Shown one piece after another: positions 3,512 through 17,755 of a stretch of DNA of 33,887 nucleotides. The notes beneath the pieces were generated by a model. It ran no database searches and was not told where the DNA came from. It saw nothing but the letters and a program-made list of their open reading frames with translations. Each line of letters opens with the position of its first letter. The first letter of the stretch is position 1. The position numbers and the translations under genes are program-made. The stretch comes from a virus (taxonomy: Duplodnaviria; Heunggongvirae; Uroviricota; Caudoviricetes): IMG/VR virus record IMGVR_UViG_2740892429_000002, positions 1-33,887 of that record; one strand, given 5' to 3'.

Positions 3512-4297
3512 TCACTCTCCTTTGATGCGAATGCCAGCAAGCCAGTTTCTTATGCCGATATATTCAGCGTTCCTGAAACCGCTTTTTACATATACAAATG
3601 GCAAGCGAAGATTGTGACCATTGGCTGCCAGGTAGTCTTTACAACCCTGTTCGGTGAAACAGCAGGTAACGAATTCATCAATATCTTTCACAGCAACGCG
3701 CCGCCATTTTTCTGGTGGCTCTCGAAAGTTTTCATGAAGTAGTTCGAGACGACGACTTTGGCGTTTATTGGCTTCATTGCCATCTTCATCAACCCAGACA
3801 ATCCGGTCATAGTCATAATCAGCATCAACAACGATTTCGCGCTTTTGATACACACAAAACATAGGGTCTGACGTTATATGATTGTCCTGTGTTCGAATAT
3901 TTTCACCGATGATGCCAAACGAATCTGGTGCAGATTTTGTCTGCAACTCTGCTATGCGCTTACTTCCATCCGCGATTACTCCCTCGTAATACACACGCTG
4001 CTCGTTGAGTTTTGATTTTGTCTCCTCAAGCTCAACTCTCAGCTTCCCTACCGTTAGCGCAATATCCTCGTTCTCCTGGTCGCGGAGTTTGATGTATTGC
4101 TGTTTTTCGTCCAGCTCATCCAACAGCCCGGCGATAATGTCCACTTCCCGATGACGGATTTCTCGCTTAAACGCCGCTAAAGCTGCATCACAATCCTGTT
4201 CAGCGTTTGGACTGTCTGGCTTTTCCTGATACCACGCCAGAGTCGATTGATAGTTTTGTGCTGCCTTACGCAACGCCTGATAGTCAATCTCGCTCAC
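3512..4297 (-). CDS. hypothetical protein with coiled-coil N-terminal half (262 aa)
   Basis: The track ORF (3512..4645) has an implausible Arg-rich N-terminus. A GTG start preceded by AAAGGAGG lies inside it (VSEIDYQALRKAA...) and overlaps the stop of the upstream 82-aa gene. Confidence 0.55.
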   Translation of the reverse strand: MSEIDYQALRKAAQNYQSTLAWYQEKPDSPNAEQDCDAALAAFKREIRHREVDIIAGLLDELDEKQQYIKLRDQENEDIALTVGKLRVELEETKSKLNEQRVYYEGVIADGSKRIAELQTKSAPDSFGIIGENIRTQDNHITSDPMFCVYQKREIVVDADYDYDRIVWVDEDGNEANKRQSRRLELLHENFREPPEKWRRVAVKDIDEFVTCCFTEQGCKDYLAANGHNLRLPFVYVKSGFRNAEYIGIRNWLAGIRIKGE

Positions 4298-5087: not shown

Positions 5088-5614
5088 GTGCGTAACTCCG
5101 ATAACTCGTTAAAGCGCTCCATAAACATCCCGTAGGCATGGCTCGGAGCCAGTGGAATAACTTTGAACATTTCTGTTGCCGGGATACCTTCCAGTACTGG
5201 CCAGAAAGAGCCATCATCAAGCCCGAGATCGCGGCGTTCGGTTGCCAGCATGATGAGATCGGCATATTTCACAGGCGTGCTCATAACCGGGGGTAACCCG
5301 TATTTCTCACGGATTACGGCGTCTATTTTTTCTTCCATCCGTTTATAGTCAGGAAGAAGGCGTTTCAGTGGAGCGGGAATGTCCTGGCAATACGCTTCTG
5401 TTGCATCATGCATTAACGCTTCAAAAGCAAATTCCTGCGGCACCAGCTGGCTGCAAAGCACCGCATGCTGGGCGACACTGTAGAAGTGTGAAAGATGTCC
5501 TGCAAAGCGACAGATATTTGAAAGGGAAACCGCGATATCGTTAATCACGATGTCGTCTTTATTTATCTTGTCATAATAAAAATGCTTCCCGGAAAAAGTT
5601 TTAATAAATGACAT
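5078..5614 (-). CDS. HD-domain phosphohydrolase (YfdR / 5'-deoxynucleotidase-like)
   Basis: Start set at MSFIKTF (GTGGAG RBS). Motifs ICRFAGH and HDATEAYCQDIP fit the HD metal-binding pattern. Confidence 0.7.
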   Translation of the reverse strand: MSFIKTFSGKHFYYDKINKDDIVINDIAVSLSNICRFAGHLSHFYSVAQHAVLCSQLVPQEFAFEALMHDATEAYCQDIPAPLKRLLPDYKRMEEKIDAVIREKYGLPPVMSTPVKYADLIMLATERRDLGLDDGSFWPVLEGIPATEMFKVIPLAPSHAYGMFMERFNELSELRTCA

Positions 5615-5742
5615 TTCGTTCTCCACTTTATATGCGCTGCACCGCGCTGAATTCGGGTAAAAGGAATCCCGCACCATCCGGCGATTATTGAGTTAATTAC
5701 GTTTCCATAAATGCCCCCGCAGGGGCATTTGCAGTAATGAAA

Positions 5743-6567
5743 TCAGGCGGTGAAAGTACCAATAAAGGTTTCTACTTTGCTGTCTTTGAATTTCTCAACA
5801 AGCAGATCACGAAATTCGTTAGCCATTTCTTCCTGCACTGCTTCCAGCTGAATAATGCGCAGAACCAGTACAGGACGATCGCCAGTGATAATGCTGAGGC
5901 GTAATTTAAATGGACGTTCTTTCAGACCTTCAAACGGAACGCATTTAAATTCAAATGCCACTGGCATAATATCTTTGGTTTTCGCTTCGACAGACTCCAT
6001 CAGGGAGCGTTTGCCGCTGAAGTCATTATCTTCAAAATCAGCGGTCTGGTTTGCTTCAATCGTGATTTTACGGACAGCCGCAGCCGCTTTTGTTGCCTGA
6101 ATAGCGTCACCATTAGCATCAAAGCCCACAAGGTAGTCGGCCCAGTCTTCAATCCATTCTGCCAGTGACTTCTGGGAATGACGCTCGCCGTTAACAGACA
6201 ACAGAGCAGAGAACGGTGCTGTCTTTTTCAGTTTGAGAGTGGCGGTGTTATCTGCGTGACCTGGTTCATCAATAGTACCCAGGTTAAGCACACTGACGGC
6301 TCGCATATTATCGGCATCGATAAAGCAGCGGGTGCCTTCATCTGCAAGATCTTTAGAATAACGGGTAAAGTCATCGATGCTGGCAGTGGAAAGCGCACCA
6401 CGGAAACGGAAGCGATTTAAATTAAATTTTTCCAGATCATGAATGCGGAAATTCTCAGGCAATGCCACAGCATCGGCACCAATCTTACTGATAATTTCAT
6501 TAACACCCTGAGCAGAAATAAGAGCATGGATTTGATTAATTGCGGTTGCGTCTAAGTTCTGAGACAT
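5743..6567 (-). CDS. DUF2303 / YfdQ-like protein
   Basis: 274 aa, GAGGA RBS. The N-terminus [11 protein letters not shown] and the size match my recollection of CPS-53 YfdQ. Confidence 0.6.
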
Positions 6568-7717: not shown

Positions 7718-8410
7718 TTAATTGTGTCGCTTAAGGGTTTGTGACTGACTGATTAAGACCTTTCCAAAGACCATAAACCGGTGTTCGTTTTCGCTGGTAA
7801 TTCCCCATTCGCGGTAAATCTGATTATCAGAAATTACCAGCAGTTTATCAGGTATCATTTGCAGTCGTTTGACGTAAATTTTATCATCAAAACCAAATAC
7901 ATATATACCATCCCCATCAAACTGATTGATACTGATATCAACGAAGATGAGATCTCCTGGCTCAATGGTTGGACACATACTGTCCCCACGAACGTTGATA
8001 ACTTTAATGTGATTTGCTGGTCGTCCACCAAACATCGATACAGCATTATCAGTTCTGTATTCAATGGCATGAATCACATCAATGACATCACCGCCCTGGA
8101 TAAGGCCATTTCCCGCACTGGCACTGACATCCAGCATTTCAATACGGAATACATCCTTCACCTGCGCAACATCCTCACTAATACTGTTTTTACATACAGT
8201 ATTACTTTTGAGGTCTGAGGTAAAGAGATCAGCAATATCAACACCTAAGCTCCTGGCAATATTACTCAGGGCTTGTTCAGTGAATTGTTTCTGCTTACCT
8301 GTTTCGAGGCGCGAGATATTCGCCGCATCCACTCCTATTGCTTCAGCGAGATCGGCGATTTTCATGTTCTTCGCCTGGCGAAGTTGTCTGACTCGATTTC
8401 CTATGTTCAT
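7718..8410 (-). CDS. cI: CI-like prophage repressor (HTH_XRE plus S24 LexA-type peptidase)
   Basis: 230 aa; N-terminal HTH (IADLAEAIGVDAANISRLETG), C-terminal GDSMCPTI serine motif and KR dyad. Divergent from cro across an operator-rich intergenic region. Confidence 0.9.
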   Translation of the reverse strand: MNIGNRVRQLRQAKNMKIADLAEAIGVDAANISRLETGKQKQFTEQALSNIARSLGVDIADLFTSDLKSNTVCKNSISEDVAQVKDVFRIEMLDVSASAGNGLIQGGDVIDVIHAIEYRTDNAVSMFGGRPANHIKVINVRGDSMCPTIEPGDLIFVDISINQFDGDGIYVFGFDDKIYVKRLQMIPDKLLVISDNQIYREWGITSENEHRFMVFGKVLISQSQTLKRHN

Positions 8411-8507: not shown

Positions 8508-8768
8508 ATGCAATCACCATTACGGAATGTGCGTAAGGCGCACGGATTTACTTTGCAGCATGTTGCTGCGGGCGTTCAGGTCAATCCAGCGACGCTGAGT
8601 CGTATTGAAAGACTGGAACAAATTCCATCTATCGATCTTGCAGAACGTCTGGCCAATTTTTTTAAGGGTGAAATCAGCGAAATGCAGATTCTTTATCCGG
8701 CACGTTTTCAATCTAGCCAAAACCAGAATGGGTTTAAACCACAGGAACAGGAGGTAAGCCGTGGGTAA
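8508..8768 (+). CDS. cro: Cro-like HTH regulator
   Basis: 86 aa with HTH_XRE motif (LQHVAAGVQVNPATLSRIE), GGAGG RBS, first rightward gene. Confidence 0.75.
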   Translation: MQSPLRNVRKAHGFTLQHVAAGVQVNPATLSRIERLEQIPSIDLAERLANFFKGEISEMQILYPARFQSSQNQNGFKPQEQEVSRG

Positions 8769-9312
8769 GCATCATTGGAAAGTGGAAAAACAACCTGAAT
8801 GGTACGTGAAAGCTGTCAGAAAAACTATCGCGGCATTGCCTGGGGGTTACGCTGAAGCTGCTGACTGGCTGGATGTAACAGAGAACGCTTTATTCAACCG
8901 CCTTCGTGCAGATGGCGATCAGATTTTCCCGCTGGGATGGGCAATGGTTTTACAGCGCGCGGCTGGCACTCACTACATTGCGGATGCTGTCGCACAGTCT
9001 GCTGGTGGGGTGTTCGTATCGCTTCCTGAAATTGAGGAAGTAGAGAACGCCGATATAAACCAGCGCCTGCTGGAAGTCATCGAACAGATCGGGAATTACT
9101 CAAAGCAGATTCGTTCGGCAATCGAAGATGGGGTCGTGGAGCCACACGAGCAGACAGCAATTAATGATGAGTTGTATCTGTCAATTTCGAAGCTCCAGGA
9201 GCATGCAGCACTGGTCTACAAAATCTTCTGCGCTCCAGAAAAGAGTGACGCCCGCGAGTGTGCAGCTCCGGGCGTCGTGGCGTTTTGTGTCTGTGGAGAA
9301 ACTAACGCATGA
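8761..9312 (+). CDS. CII-position regulatory protein (CII/YdaT-like)
   Basis: 183 aa, GTG start after AGGAGG. The position after cro suggests a lysogeny-establishment regulator; family assignment is uncertain. Confidence 0.45.
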   Translation: MGKHHWKVEKQPEWYVKAVRKTIAALPGGYAEAADWLDVTENALFNRLRADGDQIFPLGWAMVLQRAAGTHYIADAVAQSAGGVFVSLPEIEEVENADINQRLLEVIEQIGNYSKQIRSAIEDGVVEPHEQTAINDELYLSISKLQEHAALVYKIFCAPEKSDARECAAPGVVAFCVCGETNA

Positions 9313-9722
9313 ACAGTTTAACGGCAAATAACCGTTTGTCGCAACAGCTGGTGGTCAGTGTCGCTGAACACCTGTTGTTACGGCATGAATGCAGATTACC
9401 AAATCACTTGGCTGTAAGTAACCACAGAGAACTTTACCTGACTGTGGGGGGCGAGTTGTGCAGGAACTTAACCGCTGGTTTCGTGACGGAAGAGGGCTTT
9501 ATGTCCATGTTATTCGTTGGGAGCCAGAAACACAGCGCGTTATCTATCTTCGCAAAGACTACCCGCATGAGTGCTTTAGTCCTTTGTGGAAATTCAGGCG
9601 TGATTTTGTTGAGTGTGAAGGACCACCAGCACATTGATTCTGCCATTCCGGGACGTTACACTGTTCAGGCACCTTATAAAGCGGGTGCCGGGCGTGGAAA
9701 CTCGGAATTCACCAAAGCGCAC

Positions 9723-9746
9723 AACCGCGCTCTTGCGGTTTTTTTG
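9723..9746 (+). terminator. intrinsic terminator in the early-right operon
   Basis: AACCGC-GCTCTT-GCGGTT followed by TTTTTTT. Confidence 0.5.
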
Positions 9747-9914
9747 TGTAATGAGCAGCATTACGCCCAAATTATGGTGGGGCGTGCAGGGCCAACTTCG
9801 GTTGGGCCGGGTTCTTTGGTGACCGGTATTTCCACCCCTGTACGTCTCACCACCAATAAGGTCGTGGAAAGCCTTGGTGGTGAGTTATTAAAAATCACCA
9901 AAGAGGCTGCCATC

Positions 9915-10460
9915 ATGGCTACGATCCCAACCCTCACTCAACCTGAAATTGCCATCGTTGATGGTCAGGCTGTTACTTCATCCCTGGCTGTTGCCAACTT
10001 CTTCTCCAAACGTCATGACGATGTACTGAAAAAGATCCGCACGCTTGAATGCTCTGCATCATTCACTTCCCGCAATTTTTCGGCGAGTGATTACACCGAT
10101 TGCACAGGCCGCAAACTACCTTGCTATCAAATAACCCGCGACGGCTTTGCGTTTCTTGCTATGGGTTTCACGGGTAAACGTGCTGCCCAGTTCAAAGAGG
10201 CATACATCAATGCCTTTAACCAGATGGAGAAACAGCTTTCAAATCCCTCTGTACTGAGCGACGTTGCACATAACGCCAGCGTTCTCTATTCCTACATTTC
10301 ATCAATTCATCAGGTCTGGCTGCAGCAGCTTTATCCTATGTTGGCAAAAGCCGAATCTCCGCTGGCTGTTAGCTTGTATGACTATATTAATGATGCTTCG
10401 GCACTGGCCTGCCTCATAAATTTGTCGCTGAACCCTTCAGAGGTAAGGGGGCGCAAATGA
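9915..10460 (+). CDS. Rha-family phage regulatory protein
   Basis: Internal ATG (AAGAGG upstream) of the long track ORF. The N-terminal motif TSSLAVANFFSKRHDDVLKKIRTL is the Rha signature. Confidence 0.75.
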   Translation: MATIPTLTQPEIAIVDGQAVTSSLAVANFFSKRHDDVLKKIRTLECSASFTSRNFSASDYTDCTGRKLPCYQITRDGFAFLAMGFTGKRAAQFKEAYINAFNQMEKQLSNPSVLSDVAHNASVLYSYISSIHQVWLQQLYPMLAKAESPLAVSLYDYINDASALACLINLSLNPSEVRGRK

Positions 10461-10681
10461 TCCGGAATATTTTCAAACGGTTTACCAATCAGACTTTCCG
10501 TTGTCCTCGTCCGGGTCAGTGGTACACCACACCTGCAGGGCATGTTCTACGTGTTAGCCTGGTTGACCGTGAATGTCAGAAGGTGATTTGTGAACCGCTG
10601 GGCCGTAGTTACCGCGTCAGTATGCCGCTTATAGCCTTTCGCTCCGGAAAAAACATGAAGCATCTCGGAGGTGCTGCATGA
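10457..10681 (+). CDS. hypothetical small protein (74 aa)
   Basis: ATGA-coupled to Rha upstream and to the initiator gene downstream. Confidence 0.45.
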   Translation: MIRNIFKRFTNQTFRCPRPGQWYTTPAGHVLRVSLVDRECQKVICEPLGRSYRVSMPLIAFRSGKNMKHLGGAA

Positions 10682-11496
10682 GTATGGAGCTGATGGTTAA
10701 AGCGATGAAAATTCGAGTGGGTAATCCATTGCGAAAACTGGTTCTGATCAAGCTGGCTGATAATGCCAGCGATCAGGGGGAGTGCTGGCCCAGCTACCAG
10801 CATATTGCTGACCAGTGCGAGATTAGTAAACGTTCTGTGATGAATCATATTGCGGCCCTTTGTGAGTCCGGGCTGGTAAAAAAAGTCACTCGGAAAGGTG
10901 AAAAAGGTAACTCAAGTAATATCTATCTCCTTCATCTGGATGGTGCAGGAGATTCACTAGGGGGTAGTGCAAATAATTCACTATCTGGTGCAGCAAATTC
11001 ACCAGGTAGTGCAGGAGTTGCACCAGGGGGTAGTGCAGGAGATTCACCCAGAACCAGTCACTCTTTTGAACCAGTCAAAGAACCAGTCAATGAACCAATA
11101 GCTGTTGGTGCATCAGTTGATGAGTCCGTGCGAGTTCGTTCAAACCGACCGGAATACTCTCCGGAGTTTGAGCAGGCATGGCTGGCATATCCCAAACGTG
11201 CTGGTGGCAATTCAAAATCTGCAGCCTTCAAAGCCTGGAAAGCCCGTTTGAATGAGGGAGTAAACCCCGAAACCATGCTGGAAGGTGTGAAACGCTACGC
11301 GGGCTGGGTATCTGCGATGGGTAACAGCGGCACACAATTTGTGAAACAGGCTGTCACGTTCTTTGGTCCGGATCGTCATTTCGAAGAATCCTGGGAAGTT
11401 CCTGCGGTATCTGCAGCCAGACGCGAGGACCCGTACTTCAAAGCCAGTTACGACAACGTGGACTACAGCCAGATCCCGGCAGGATTCAGGGGGTGA
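10678..11496 (+). CDS. replication initiator (O-like) with N-terminal HTH and low-complexity linker
   Basis: 272 aa, GGAGGTG RBS. N-terminal wHTH (LADNASDQGECWPSYQHIADQCEISKRSVMNHIAAL); Gly/Ser/Ala linker encoded by DNA iterons; conserved C-terminal domain. Confidence 0.65.
   Translation: MSMELMVKAMKIRVGNPLRKLVLIKLADNASDQGECWPSYQHIADQCEISKRSVMNHIAALCESGLVKKVTRKGEKGNSSNIYLLHLDGAGDSLGGSANNSLSGAANSPGSAGVAPGGSAGDSPRTSHSFEPVKEPVNEPIAVGASVDESVRVRSNRPEYSPEFEQAWLAYPKRAGGNSKSAAFKAWKARLNEGVNPETMLEGVKRYAGWVSAMGNSGTQFVKQAVTFFGPDRHFEESWEVPAVSAARREDPYFKASYDNVDYSQIPAGFRG
10943..11089. repeat. iteron cluster (candidate replication origin) inside the initiator gene
   Basis: GTGCAGGAGATTCAC twice (about 10943 and 11033), GGTAGTGCA three times, and GAACCAGTCA three times in tandem (11051, 11068, 11080). 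Confidence 0.55.
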
Positions 11497-11498
11497 TT

Positions 11499-11987
11499 AT
11501 GAGTCTTTTGAATGAAGTTAAGAAATTCATTGAAGCCCATCCGGGGTGTACTTCCGGAGACATTGCGGATGCTTTTGCAGGTTACTCACGACAGCGCGTT
11601 CTGCAGTCAGCAAGCAAGTTACGTCAGAGTGGGCGTGTGGCTCACCGTTGTGAAGGAGATACACGCAGACATTTCCCGCGCCTGACTGAGAGAGCGCAGG
11701 AGCCGGAACCACAACCAGTTCGTGAAACCAGACCTGTGCGCAATTTCTATGTCGGCACTAACGATCCCCGGGTGATTTTGTGCCTGACCCGCCAGGCTGA
11801 AGAACTGGAGTCTAGGGGCTTATACCGTCGTGCTGCAACGGTGTGGATGGCGGCATTCCGTGAAAGCCACTCCCAGCCAGAACGAAACAATTTTCTGGCG
11901 CGTCGTGAGCAGTGCTTACAGAAAAGCAGCAAGCGCGCAGCATCGGGTGAAGAGTGGTATCTGTCAGGGAATTACGTGGGGGCTTAA
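11499..11987 (+). CDS. PerC-family transcriptional regulator-like protein
   Basis: ATG after GGGGG. C-terminal AEELESRGLYRRAATVWMAAF...RREQCL matches the PerC/Pch pattern. Confidence 0.55.
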   Translation: MSLLNEVKKFIEAHPGCTSGDIADAFAGYSRQRVLQSASKLRQSGRVAHRCEGDTRRHFPRLTERAQEPEPQPVRETRPVRNFYVGTNDPRVILCLTRQAEELESRGLYRRAATVWMAAFRESHSQPERNNFLARREQCLQKSSKRAASGEEWYLSGNYVGA

Positions 11988-12640
11988 TGAGTAATAAATA
12001 TTGTCAGGCACTGGTGGAACTGCGGAACAAACCAGCCCATGAACTGAAGGAAGTGGGCGATCAGTGGCGCACGCCGGACAACATTTTCTGGGGAATTAAC
12101 ACTCTGTTTGGCCCGTTTGTTCTGGATCTGTTTACTGACGGTGATAACGCCAAATGTGCCGCGTATTACACGGCGGAAGATAACGCGCTGGCGCATGACT
12201 GGTCAGAACGTCTTGCGGAGCTTAAAGGTGCTGCCTTTGGTAATCCCCCATACAGCCGCGCCAGTCAGCATGAGGGGCAATACATCACCGGCATGCGTTA
12301 CATCATGAAACATGCCAGTGCCATGCGTGATAAGGGCGGGCGCTATGTTTTCCTGATCAAAGCGGCCACCAGCGAAGTGTGGTGGCCGGAAGATGCAGAC
12401 CATATTGCTTTTATTCGCGGGCGTATTGGTTTTGAACTGCCTGCCTGGTTTATCCCGAAAGACGAGAAGCAGGTGCCGACAGGCGCTTTCTTCGCTGGTG
12501 CTATTGCTGTTTTCGATAAGACCTGGAAGGGACCGGCAATCAGCTACATCGGGCGCGATGAACTTGAGGCATGTGGTGAGGCGTTTCTGGCGCAGGTTCG
12601 CCAGCAGGCGGAAAAACTGGTCAGGGAGATGGCGGCATGA
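11987..12640 (+). CDS. phage Dam-type DNA N6-adenine methyltransferase
   Basis: Start at MSNKYCQ (overlaps the upstream TAA, TAATG). Catalytic FGNPPYS motif. Confidence 0.8.
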   Translation: MSNKYCQALVELRNKPAHELKEVGDQWRTPDNIFWGINTLFGPFVLDLFTDGDNAKCAAYYTAEDNALAHDWSERLAELKGAAFGNPPYSRASQHEGQYITGMRYIMKHASAMRDKGGRYVFLIKAATSEVWWPEDADHIAFIRGRIGFELPAWFIPKDEKQVPTGAFFAGAIAVFDKTWKGPAISYIGRDELEACGEAFLAQVRQQAEKLVREMAA

Positions 12641-12963
12641 CGACGTTAACTCAATGCCAGCAGCAGGTGCTGGATATGCTGATTTCTTACCAGAAAGAAC
12701 GTGGCTTCCCGCCAACTAATCAGGAGGTGGCAACCATGCTGGGATACCGTTCAGTGAATGCAGCGGTGGAGCATCTTCGCGCACTGGAGAAAAAAGGCGT
12801 CATCACGATAAAGCGTGGCGTGGCACGGGGGATAACGCTTCATACCGCGGTGAAGGACGACGACAGCGAGGCAGCCGGGATTATCCGCGCACTGCTTGCC
12901 GGTGAGGAAAACGCCAGACTGCGTGCAGCCCACTGGTTACATGAGAGGGGCCTGAAAGTATGA
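12637..12963 (+). CDS. LexA N-terminal DNA-binding-domain-only protein
   Basis: 108 aa. MTTLTQCQQQVLDMLISYQKERGFPPTNQEVATMLGYRSVNAAVEHLRALEKKGVI parallels the LexA wHTH; there is no S24 peptidase domain. Confidence 0.7.
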   Translation: MTTLTQCQQQVLDMLISYQKERGFPPTNQEVATMLGYRSVNAAVEHLRALEKKGVITIKRGVARGITLHTAVKDDDSEAAGIIRALLAGEENARLRAAHWLHERGLKV

Positions 12964-13368: not shown

Positions 13369-14166
13369 ATGAATAATCTGATGGTCATTGATGGTATTGA
13401 AGTTCGTCGTGATGCTTATGGTCGTTACAGCCTGAACGATTTGCACAGGGCTGCCGGTTCTCTGGATAAGCATAAGCCTGCATTCTGGCTCCGCAATGAG
13501 CAAACTGAACGTTTAATAAGCGAGTTGCAGATTTGCAACTCGGTCAATATAGAGCCAGTTAACGTTATTCGTGGCGGAAATAGCCAGGGGACGTATGTCT
13601 GCAAAGAACTGGTGTATGCCTATGCAATGTGGATCAGCCCGTCATTCCATCTGAAGGTGATCCGTACTTTCGACATGGTAACCAGCGCACCGGAAAAATT
13701 ATCCGGACAGGCTGCTGACAAGATGCAGGCTGGTGTGATCCTGCTGGACTTTATGCGCCGGGAATTAAACCTGTCTAACTCATCAGTGCTTGGAGCCTGT
13801 CAGAAACTCCAGGAGGCTGTTGGCTTACCGAATCTGGCACCGCGCTATGCCATTGATGCTCCTGCTGACGCGCCTGATGGCTCAAGCCGCCCCACGCTGT
13901 CACTGAGTGCACTGCTGAAGCAGTATGGTATCCGCCTGACAGCTAATCAGGCATATCACCAGATGGCGAAGCTGGGGATCGTTGAACAACGTGAACGATA
14001 CAGCCGCACTGCGATTAACAACATCAAAAAATTCTGGTCGCTGACGGCGAAAGGCTGCATGTTCGGCAAGAACATCACCAGTCCCGCAAATCCGCGCGAG
14101 ACGCAGCCGCATTTCTTCGAATCCCGGTTCCCTGAGCTGTTAAAGCTGCTCGATACCGTTCATTGA
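13369..14166 (+). CDS. KilA-N domain protein (anti-repressor-like)
   Basis: Start at MNNLMVIDGIEV with AGGAG RBS. N-terminal KilA-N-like region (GRYSLNDLHRAAG...KPAFWLRNEQT). Confidence 0.65.
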   Translation: MNNLMVIDGIEVRRDAYGRYSLNDLHRAAGSLDKHKPAFWLRNEQTERLISELQICNSVNIEPVNVIRGGNSQGTYVCKELVYAYAMWISPSFHLKVIRTFDMVTSAPEKLSGQAADKMQAGVILLDFMRRELNLSNSSVLGACQKLQEAVGLPNLAPRYAIDAPADAPDGSSRPTLSLSALLKQYGIRLTANQAYHQMAKLGIVEQRERYSRTAINNIKKFWSLTAKGCMFGKNITSPANPRETQPHFFESRFPELLKLLDTVH

Positions 14167-14167
14167 G

Positions 14168-15163
14168 GTGACCGTGAGAGCGCTACTGACCCCTGAAATT
14201 GCCCCGCGTATGGGGATCGTATTGTTCAGGCCCGGTTCAGAGCTGATGCCCCTGTTTATGCAGGGGCGTGTCCTGCTGGAGCCTGAGCCGGAACGTTATT
14301 CATCTTTCGCCAGTGGTGCCGTTCCGGCGGCATCACAACCGCTGGCGGATGATCCTGCCGTTCGGGCCGTGTTCCGCAATGAGGCAGTGATTCGTCGTGC
14401 TGGTGGAGTGGAATGTCTTGAACGCTGGTTACTTCGTGAAAAAGGTTGCCAGTGGCCTCATTCCGACTGGCACAGCGAGAACATGACCACAATGCGACAC
14501 ACGCCGGGCGCAATCCGTCTGTGCTGGCACTGCGATAACCAGCTGCGCGATCAGTTCACGGAACGGCTGGAATCAATGGCAACGGATAACTGTACCCGCT
14601 GGGTGTTGTCTGTTGTGCGTCGGGATCTCGGTTTTGATGACAGTCACGTTGTGACAATGCCGGAACTGTGCTGGTGGCTGATTCGTAATGACCTGGCGGA
14701 TGCCTTACCGGAAAGTGCAGCCCGTAAGGCACTGAGATTACCGAAGCCTGTTGTGCCGTCTGTCACCCGGGAAAGTGACCTTGTGCCTTCGGTTCCTGCC
14801 ACCAGCATCATCCAGGATAAAGCGAAAAAGGTGCTGGCGCTGAAAGTGGATCCAGAGTCGCCGGAGTCTTTTATGTTACGCCCAAAACGTCGCCGCTGGG
14901 TTAATGAAAAGTACACGCGCTGGGTTAAGACACAGCCGTGTGCATGTTGTGGAAAGCCTGCTGATGATCCCCACCACCTGATAGGTCACGGTCAGGGTGG
15001 AATGGGAACAAAAGCGCATGACCTTTTTGTGTTGCCTTTGTGCAGAAAGCATCACGACGAGCTGCATGCGGATACCGTGGCATTTGAAGAGAAGTATGGC
15101 TCCCAACTGGAGCTGATATTTCGTTTTATCGATCGTGCGCTGGCAATTGGCGTGCTGGCCTGA
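14168..15163 (+). CDS. DUF968-type nin-region protein with HNH-like zinc-finger C-terminus
   Basis: 331 aa. C-terminal [28 protein letters not shown]...CRKHHDELH. Start codon uncertain (GTG at 14168 or a downstream ATG). Confidence 0.55.
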
Positions 15164-15180
15164 TTTTGTGGAGAAAGTTG

Positions 15181-15546
15181 ATGCGTGATATTCAAATGGT
15201 TCTTGAACGTTGGGGGGCATGGGTGGCAAATAATCACGAGGATGTCACCTGGTCGTCTATTGCTGCAGGATTTAAAGGACTAATCCCTTCAAAAGTAAAA
15301 TCCCGCCCGCAATGTTGTGACGATGACGCGATGATCATTTGTGGGTGCATGGCTCGCCTGAAAAAGAACAACAGCGATTTGCACGATTTATTAGTGGATT
15401 ATTATGTAGGTGGTATGACGTTTATGGCGCTTGCCCGTAAACATGGGCGTTCTGATTGCTGGGTTGGGCGTTTATTGCAAAAGGCTGAAGGTGTAGTTGA
15501 TGGCATGTTAATGATGTTAGAAATTGAGCTAGAGATGGATCGTTAG
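15181..15546 (+). CDS. Q: late-gene antiterminator Q
   Basis: ATG after [43 protein letters not shown] matches the Q family of phage 82/DLP12 (QuuD-like) as I recall it. Confidence 0.75.
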
Positions 15547-15630: not shown

Positions 15631-16077
15631 TTAAGGTTTTAATTCATCAAGACGTTGTTGGATAGTGTTTTTGCTTGCGTTGTCTGTTATAGCCATTTGT
15701 TGTACTTGCCCCATTGCCATTTGAGTTTCCATCCACATATCGGCCCACACTTTTGTATCGTTATTAACTTGAGCGATAGTAAATCTGACTTTTGATACCG
15801 GGGTTGTTGAATAGGCATTTCCGATTAACATTTGTCCAAAAAAAGCAGAGCCGCCTTCCAGTTCTTTACCACATATAACACTGCTGTTATCCGCGTTGTA
15901 AATTATCAACCCTCTACTATTGCAGTAATTCACAAGGGCATCTTTGACTTTATCTTTTGTCGTATTTTGATAAACCCCCTCAGGTTTTCCTGATTGAGTT
16001 TTCTTTATCAATGGTACGGAAGAAGTACAACCTGAAATGATAGTTGCGCTAAGTAATAGTACAGTCATTTTATTCAT
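15631..16077 (-). CDS. lipoprotein of unknown function (moron, opposite strand)
   Basis: 148 aa with signal peptide and lipobox (LLLSATIISGC). Markedly AT-rich relative to its neighbours; transcribed against the flanking phage genes. Confidence 0.7.
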   Translation of the reverse strand: MNKMTVLLLSATIISGCTSSVPLIKKTQSGKPEGVYQNTTKDKVKDALVNYCNSRGLIIYNADNSSVICGKELEGGSAFFGQMLIGNAYSTTPVSKVRFTIAQVNNDTKVWADMWMETQMAMGQVQQMAITDNASKNTIQQRLDELKP

Positions 16078-16324: not shown

Positions 16325-16552
16325 ATGTTAACCAGAAGGGAAAAAGACATGCTAAAACAGCAAGATATGACAGAAACCGCCGCCGCAGTCCTTCATTTCT
16401 TACCTGCTGACAAGTGGGTAACGCCACGCATGATGACGAGAACTACCGGAGTAAGCGAAGCCCGGTGCCAGTTAATACTGACTCAGTTAGTTCTGGCGGG
16501 TCTGGCGAAGGATAACGGCGGGTACGGGAATAAATTCAGACGCTGCCAGTAA
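16325..16552 (+). CDS. small putative winged-helix protein (75 aa)
   Basis: ORF just upstream of the methyltransferase; no strong SD. Helix-rich segment TGVSEARCQLILTQLVLAGL. Confidence 0.4.
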   Translation: MLTRREKDMLKQQDMTETAAAVLHFLPADKWVTPRMMTRTTGVSEARCQLILTQLVLAGLAKDNGGYGNKFRRCQ

Positions 16553-16702: not shown

Positions 16703-17755
16703 ATGAAAAATACTGTAAAAATAAACAGTGTTGATTTAATCAACGCTGATTGCCTGCATTTTATTCAGTCCCTGCCTGATGATTCCATTGACCTGATTGT
16801 TACCGATCCGCCGTACTTCAAGGTGAAACCCAACGGCTGGGACAATCAGTGGAAAGGGGACGAAGATTACCTTAAGTGGCTGGACCACTGTCTGGCCCAG
16901 TTCTGGCGGGTGTTAAAACCTGCCGGAAGCCTTTACCTGTTCTGTGGGCATCGCCTGGCATCTGATATTGAGATCATGATGCGTGAACGTTTCAACGTGC
17001 TTAACCATATCATCTGGGCGAAGCCGTCCGGACGTTGGAATGGGTGTAATAAAGAAAGTCTGCGTGCATATTTTCCTGCCACAGAGCGCGTTCTGTTTGC
17101 TGAACATTACCAGGGGCCATATCGCGGCAAAAGTGACGGCTATGCGGCAAAAGAAAGGGAACTCAAACAGCACATAATGGCACCGCTGATATCGTATTTC
17201 AGGGATGCTCGTGCCGAACTGGGTATAACGACAAAACAAATTGCCGAAGCCACAGGTAAGAAAAATATGGTTTCCCACTGGTTTGGTGCCAGTCAGTGGC
17301 AGTTGCCGAATGAGGCTGACTATCGGAAGTTACAGGCACTGTTTTCCCGTATAGCGGCAGAGAAGTTTCAGGAACAACAACTGGAACAACCACACCACCA
17401 GCTGGTGGCATCTTATGATTCACTGAATCGCAAATATTCTGAATTGCTGGATGAGTTTAAATCTCTCCGGCGCTATTTCTCCGTATCAGTCTCCGTGCCT
17501 TATACCGATGTCTGGATGCATAAACCCGTTCAGTTCTACCCGGGGAAACATCCGTGTGAGAAACCGGCGGATATGCTCAGGCAAATAATCAATGCCAGTA
17601 GTCGACCAGGTGATCTGGTTGCTGATTTTTTTATGGGATCCGGTTCCACAATAAAAGCAGCAATGGCGCTGGGGCGTCGGGCCTTAGGTGTTGAGCTTGA
17701 GTCAGAGCGGTTTAACCAGACAGTGAAAGAGATAAACGAGCTGGTGGGGAAATAA
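16703..17755 (+). CDS. orphan DNA methyltransferase (N6-adenine/N4-cytosine class, DPPY motif)
   Basis: 350 aa. IVTDPPYF catalytic motif near the N-terminus and an FxGSGST AdoMet-binding motif near the C-terminus. No cognate restriction gene nearby. Confidence 0.8.

Follow-up and report, generated by a model that had tools for sequence, protein, structure and literature searches.

What does a lambdoid prophage do with a LexA DNA-binding domain that has no peptidase attached? The question is raised by a gene, here named mLexA, in a stretch of 33,887 nucleotides (the window) that represents a lambdoid prophage near phages PhiR40_1 and mEp460. The original prediction for this gene was a protein that binds LexA-box-like DNA without being cleaved by RecA, and that could act as a decoy or super-repressor which changes the SOS response or prophage induction.

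The mLexA gene and its protein

The mLexA gene occupies positions 12637-12963 on the plus strand, exactly as predicted, and encodes 108 amino acids from an ATG to a TGA at 12961-12963. A Shine-Dalgarno-like GGGAGA (12624-12629, plus strand) was read in the sequence 7 nucleotides 5' of the ATG. The product matches PHROG 362 over its full length (residues 1-108 to positions 1-106 of 106, E = 1.2e-58) and carries the RefSeq name 'LexA family transcriptional regulator'.

The Pfam model LexA_DNA_bind (PF01726) covers residues 1-65 with all of its 65 positions (E = 2.9e-19; 69 bits against a cutoff of 23.7), and the protein matched the E. coli LexA structures 1lea, 1jhh and 3jso (E ~ 1e-15). According to Pfam, AF2 and Foldseek, residues 1-69 (12637-12843, plus strand) form a LexA-type winged helix-turn-helix with helices at residues 6-22, 28-35 and 40-52 and a two-stranded wing at residues 56-68. 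The AF2 structure is a model of the monomer with a mean pLDDT of 79, and its alignment by Foldseek to the LexA-DNA complex 3jso gave an rmsd of 1.0 Å over 68 residues at 50% identity. A low-confidence linker (residues 71-74) is followed by a conserved C-terminal tail that AF2 models as two helices (residues 75-103, with helices at 75-87 and 93-103; 12859-12945, plus strand), and block pLDDT values for residues 81-100 were 87 and 85.

The S24 peptidase domain of LexA is absent from mLexA, as the chain ends at residue 108 and PF00717 was unmatched in the Pfam search. A frameshifted or displaced peptidase 3' of mLexA was ruled out, since the downstream reading frame encodes RusA. Because the domain that contains Ser119 and Lys156 is missing, mLexA cannot cleave itself in the LexA manner upon stimulation by RecA. 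The predicted LexA winged helix that stops short of the peptidase, and thereby escapes the RecA route, is thus borne out.

It may be asked whether a trace of the cleavage region is left. HMMER aligns residues 70-90 to the linker and cleavage region of LexA, where LLAGEE (residues 86-91) stands opposite LexA VAAGEP at the Ala84-Gly85 cleavage site, and the NCBIfam lexA equivalog model TIGR00498 reaches position 91 of its 203 positions, with a score of 67.7 that is below the cutoff of 110.95. A vestigial LLAGEE could let the protein engage S24 peptidases or RecA* as a pseudo-substrate or decoy. However, the wider family does not conserve the Ala-Gly pair, AF2 predicts a helix here rather than an extended strand, and mLexA has no catalytic domain that could use the site. 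In addition, RecA* engages the C-terminal domain of LexA (PDB 8trg), which mLexA lacks. For the latter reason a role as a RecA decoy is unlikely, and we regard a pseudo-substrate role in general as very improbable.

The gene is under purifying selection. Across 716 pairs from 62 distinct homologues the pN/pS was 0.18 for the whole gene, with 0.12 for the winged-helix part and 0.29 for the tail. All 62 proteins are intact and 106-111 amino acids long. Ala97 and Leu101 of the tail are invariant, and the tail is conserved down to relatives of approximately 40% identity. The resemblance to LexA is far beyond chance. The truncation itself would fit a decaying, functionless remnant of a captured lexA gene, and nothing more speaks for it; the selection analysis effectively refutes this explanation, the intact lengths, the conserved tail and the occurrence in 41% of complete E. 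coli genomes speak against it too, and we regard it as barely credible.

Searched alone against solved structures, the tail gave no significant homologue. We infer that it is a dimerisation or partner-binding module, and dimerisation through the tail would be expected because the isolated LexA DNA-binding domain binds poorly without a dimerising partner. The PADLOC defence-system models gave weak winged-helix resemblance to mLexA only.

Operon position and distribution of the family

The genes around mLexA are those of a lambdoid early region. The cI repressor gene (HTH and S24 domains) is located at 7718-8410 on the minus strand. It is followed by cro (8508-8768), a cII-like gene (8761-9312), an Ash/Rha gene (9309-10460), a replication protein gene (10678-11496), a PerC/YfdN gene (11493-11987), dam (PF05869; 11987-12640, plus strand), mLexA, rusA (PF05866; 12960-13349, plus strand), a KilA-N gene (13369-14166), a DUF968/HNH gene (14168-15163) and Q (15166-15546), with the late genes beyond. 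The rightward early operon therefore has the order cro - cII - replication - perC - dam - mLexA - rusA - kilA-N - DUF968 - Q. The mLexA start codon overlaps the TGA of dam in an ATGA at 12637-12640, and its stop codon overlaps the ATG of rusA in an ATGA at 12960-12963. Between Q and the late genes we also observed a reverse-strand reading frame of 147 amino acids (PHROG 3152, 15631-16077, minus strand) and one of 75 amino acids (PHROG 331, 16325-16552, plus strand).

From the replication gene to Q no promoter-like or terminator-like sites were found beyond chance, and none that would belong to mLexA itself. The SfV record annotates a weak promoter for dam, which the window does not preserve. 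Therefore, the rightward transcript probably yields mLexA as a delayed-early product. Its synthesis would follow infection or the release of prophage repression and would not take place in the quiescent lysogen.

The gene is common. Of 5426 complete E. coli genomes, 2233 (41%) contained DNA at least 90% identical to mLexA, in up to four copies each, and in all the E. coli matches listed it was flanked by dam and rusA and annotated as 'LexA family transcriptional regulator'. It is found in mEp460, SfII (gp44, 'LexA DNA binding domain protein'), SfV (orf42), cdtI (orf48), phage 1720a-02 and many Stx2 phages. The lambdoid members of PHROG 362 (mEp460, SfII, SfV, cdtI and the Stx2 phages) have a protein of the same family in the same dam-mLexA-rusA cassette, and the gene of the window is an ordinary member of this family. 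The copy in 1720a-02 (KF030445.1) is annotated 'SOS-response repressor and protease LexA'.

In an exhaustive HMMER search, relatives of 40-50% identity were found to keep the whole architecture of mLexA including the tail. The same search returned many other proteins with a LexA DNA-binding domain only, and proteins with tandem domains. Tandem LexA DNA-binding domains in one chain without S24 were observed in the metagenomic proteins P0130, P0132, P0144, P0150 and others, and represent a different way of placing two DNA-binding domains on a palindrome. According to BFVD, proteins with a LexA DNA-binding domain only occur in many phage groups. The mLexA family is thus already annotated, real and selected, and belongs to a recognised class of phage proteins. 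Full-text literature searches aimed at the function of the enterobacterial family found no functional study of it.

The gene order was compared in 80 IMG/VR viral-contig loci that encode an mLexA relative of approximately 45% identity (the distant loci). In 78 of these, and in all loci with the recognition helix of the window (type T1, below), rusA is located directly 3' of mLexA, usually with overlapping or abutting codons. The 5' neighbour varies and is a different adenine methyltransferase with a 75-amino-acid reading frame, perC or another gene. This methyltransferase (5091-5780 in locus L004, and its equivalents) is not the Dam PF05869 of the window and matches the 'adenine specific methyltransferase' of HK639. 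A DNA adenine methylase beside mLexA therefore recurs with non-homologous enzymes.

The constancy of rusA next to a variable 5' neighbour could indicate that mLexA is an accessory DNA-binding protein for recombination or replication that is partnered with RusA, and not a transcription factor. In phage lambda the small DNA-binding protein NinH is encoded beside the resolvase gene rap, and this analogy is what the idea draws on. On the other hand, the adjacency may merely reflect a fixed order in the nin region, and the recognition helix is conserved within each helix type, as expected of sequence-specific binding. Also rusA presumably occurs without mLexA in DLP12 and phage 82. We consider an accessory role with RusA improbable.

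Recognition helices and SOS boxes

The recognition helix of mLexA, residues 39-53 in the alignment to LexA (12751-12795, plus strand), reads SVNAAVEHLRALEKK, compared to SPNAAEEHLKALARK in LexA. The listed DNA-contact residues of LexA are Ser39, Asn41, Ala42, Glu44 and Glu45 (PMC3091678). With S-V-N-A-A-V-E-H in place of S-P-N-A-A-E-E-H, mLexA keeps four of the five, namely Ser39, Asn41, Ala42 and Glu45, while Glu44 is changed to Val. This helix is the part of the window allele that is most similar to LexA, and Ser39, Asn41, Ala42, Ala43, Glu45, His46 and Leu47 are identical.

The change at position 44 is not a peculiarity of the window. Among the tail-bearing family members found, position 44 is never Glu and is instead Val, Ala, Phe, Thr, Leu or Tyr. 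In contrast, 10 of 11 full-length, S24-bearing LexA proteins, taken as the nearest database representatives, have Glu44, with position 45 varying between Glu, Asp, Gln and Ser. The only sampled full-length LexA that lacks Glu44 is P0197 (209 amino acids, with S24), which has Val44-Thr45 in SINAAVTHL and could represent a divergent second paralogue of LexA. Since a residue kept by nearly all true LexA proteins is lost, mLexA is probably not a simple LexA copy, as far as can be judged from its helix.

At least three types of recognition helix were found within the same gene order (loci L004-L083): T1 with SVNAAVEH, as in the window, T2 with SPNAAAEH, as in loci related to mEp390, and T3 with SGNTAAGH. 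The T3 loci form a large sister subgroup, which also lacks Glu45 and Ala42, and the mLexA family as a whole is therefore under no constraint to recognise the SOS box of the host. This diversity of helix types resembles the immunity-type diversification of phage repressors.

The original prediction had found no canonical CTGT-N8-ACAG box in the window, which is incorrect. There are four exact matches (at 3647, 8184, 9412 and 16713) compared to 0.42 expected, and none of 100 shuffles reached four. When multiple testing is considered, many other palindromes of the window are at least as enriched as CTGT-N8-ACAG. Two of the matches lie in strong 20-bp SOS boxes. With a PSSM built from approximately 28 E. 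coli boxes, which themselves have a median score of 20.4, the two boxes scored 24.9 and 22.2, and shuffles gave 0.003 hits of at least 20 per window.

The box with the score of 24.9 (TACTGTTTTTACATACAGTA, 8182-8201) is a candidate operator in cI, approximately 209 nucleotides into the gene in the linker between the HTH and S24 domains, and is a perfect 9+9 palindrome close to the consensus. It could serve as a roadblock, or as a promoter within the gene that reads in the sense or the antisense direction. Positions 8179-8204 were observed to be an island of nucleotide conservation in 16 distinct cI genes (68-99% amino acid identity), with flanking codons and amino acids that vary. The box with the score of 22.2 (TACTGTAAAAATAAACAGTG, 16711-16730) is a candidate operator downstream of Q in codons 3-9 of a late N6_N4 DNA methylase gene (16703-17755). 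SfV and cdtI contain the same 20-mer.

The boxes and the mLexA gene are distributed independently. The cI box is also found in phage Eeyore, which has no mLexA, and locus L001 has an identical mLexA gene and no strong SOS box in 28 kb. The presence of SOS boxes did not co-vary with the type of recognition helix, as both loci with Glu45 and loci with Gly45 carry them.

In some related loci an SOS box (AACTGTTCAAACATACAGGT) was observed to overlap a -10-like hexamer TATAAA between rusA and the KilA-N gene (L071, 6665-6700; also L074, L075, L079, L082 and L083). This suggests that the KilA-N or antirepressor-type gene beside mLexA-rusA is LexA-controlled in L071-like phages. The window has no such box because the gap between the two genes is only approximately 20 nucleotides.

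Operators other than the SOS box were also searched for. When all inverted repeats of 4-mers separated by 4-12 nucleotides were enumerated in the window, no new operator candidate emerged. When CTGT-, CTAT-, CTTT- and CTCT-N8 palindromes were analyzed for positional clustering near mLexA in 85 loci, no recurrent site was found beyond the known SOS boxes. The variant box CTWT-N8-AWAG, which would be expected if Val44 prefers an A:T pair, had one hit compared to 1.8 expected, and a search near the late region for a palindromic site like that of GIL01 gp6 (below) gave no candidate. Palindromes that discriminate T2 from T3 loci were rejected as operators, since every one of them falls within linked coding regions, such as the mLexA wing and rusA.

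These data bear on the question whether mLexA is an uncleavable LexA mimic that binds canonical SOS boxes and restores repression after host LexA has been destroyed. Its targets would be host SOS genes, the LexA-controlled antirepressors of competing prophages and the SOS-box elements of the phage itself. The identity of 50% to the LexA DNA-binding domain, the four kept contact residues in the most LexA-like segment of the protein (helix 3) and the two strong boxes of the window, against 0.003 expected, all argue for such a mimic, and so does the box over TATAAA 5' of the KilA-N gene in related loci, where a substitute that resists cleavage could take over from cleaved LexA. It is also established that LexA(1-87) regains repressor activity when joined to a dimerising module. 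However, Glu44 is changed to Val where genuine LexA proteins keep Glu, the sister subgroup has also lost Glu45, and the boxes and the gene are distributed independently of each other. Furthermore, a 2025 preprint on the 'bully phage' 1720a-02 names Cro as the cause of its interference with a co-resident prophage, and the mLexA gene goes unmentioned there. We regard the mimic as doubtful, although it is the main rival of the explanation favoured below.

The super-repressor of the original prediction fares in the same way. The part of it that calls for a LexA DNA-binding domain without autocleavage, with four of five contacts, holds. The part that calls for binding to SOS boxes is weakened by the family-wide loss of Glu44, the loss of Glu45 in T3, the lack of co-distribution with the boxes and the precedent of GIL01 gp6 (below), an activator with a different palindrome, and judged from these comparisons SOS super-repression by mLexA is rather unlikely.

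Proposed role and comparison with known systems

The explanation that we favour, at slightly less than an even chance and from sequence comparison, is that mLexA is a LexA-derived, RecA-insensitive, delayed-early regulator with sequence-specific DNA binding that dimerises through its tail and has an operator related but not identical to the SOS box. The protein would descend from the LexA N-terminal domain and act as a phage transcription or DNA-binding factor that RecA* does not inactivate. As a tail-linked dimer it would bind a palindromic operator, which may differ from the host SOS box because Glu44 is replaced throughout the family and at least three helix types exist. Binding to canonical SOS boxes could still occur, because the helix is the most LexA-like segment and two excellent boxes are present in the same phage. 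The promoters regulated during lytic growth may be those of the phage, of a co-resident prophage or of the host, and the mode of action would resemble that of GIL01 gp6 more than strict mimicry of LexA.

The consequences depend on the operator. SOS induction drives toxin release in the Stx2-converting phages that carry mLexA. If mLexA touches SOS-box promoters, induction dynamics, prophage competition and possibly Stx output would be altered. That it would go further, and as a RecA-proof replacement for LexA close SOS-box promoters again after LexA cleavage, is in our judgement from the sequence a step less probable than the mimic as such. In that case the host SOS regulon with its toxins would be closed again, and so would the LexA-controlled antirepressors of rival prophages, as well as the boxes of the phage itself in cI and the methylase gene. 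Lambdoid and Shiga-toxin phages in approximately 40% of E. coli genomes would then carry their own means to shut off the SOS response and to compete with other prophages. If mLexA instead has an operator of its own, it would add an unmapped regulator to a phage group that is among the most studied.

E. coli LexA (TIGR00498; 1lea, 1jhh, 3jso) is the closest known protein in the DNA-binding fold, with the 50% identity and 1.0 Å rmsd given above for the winged helix and with Arg64-Gly65-Ile66 of the wing kept. mLexA differs from it in the absence of the S24 peptidase and dimerisation domain, and hence of RecA-dependent autocleavage, in Val at position 44 and in an unrelated two-helix tail. E. coli LexA is an autoregulated host gene product, whereas mLexA is encoded by a phage in an early lytic operon. 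Without S24, with an equivalog score below the cutoff and with Glu44 changed, mLexA falls outside LexA proper and shares its DNA-binding fold.

[quoted passage not shown] They differ from it in being engineered and in keeping the wild-type recognition helix.

The only characterised phage protein that consists of a LexA DNA-binding domain alone is gp6 of GIL01, a tectivirus of Bacillus thuringiensis. This truncated LexA homologue recognises a palindrome of its own and switches on the late promoter P3 (PMC6182141). Its site, GaCACAn nTGTGaC, is located at -43.5 of P3 and overlaps the -35, and the role as an activator is experimentally established (PMC6182141). Its recognition helix is marked by Lys38. 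Unlike mLexA, gp6 comes from a Gram-positive tectivirus and has no two-helix tail at its C-terminus. By the description of gp6 the two proteins have in common that they are phage-encoded, consist of a LexA DNA-binding domain without the peptidase, are products of an early operon and are insensitive to RecA.
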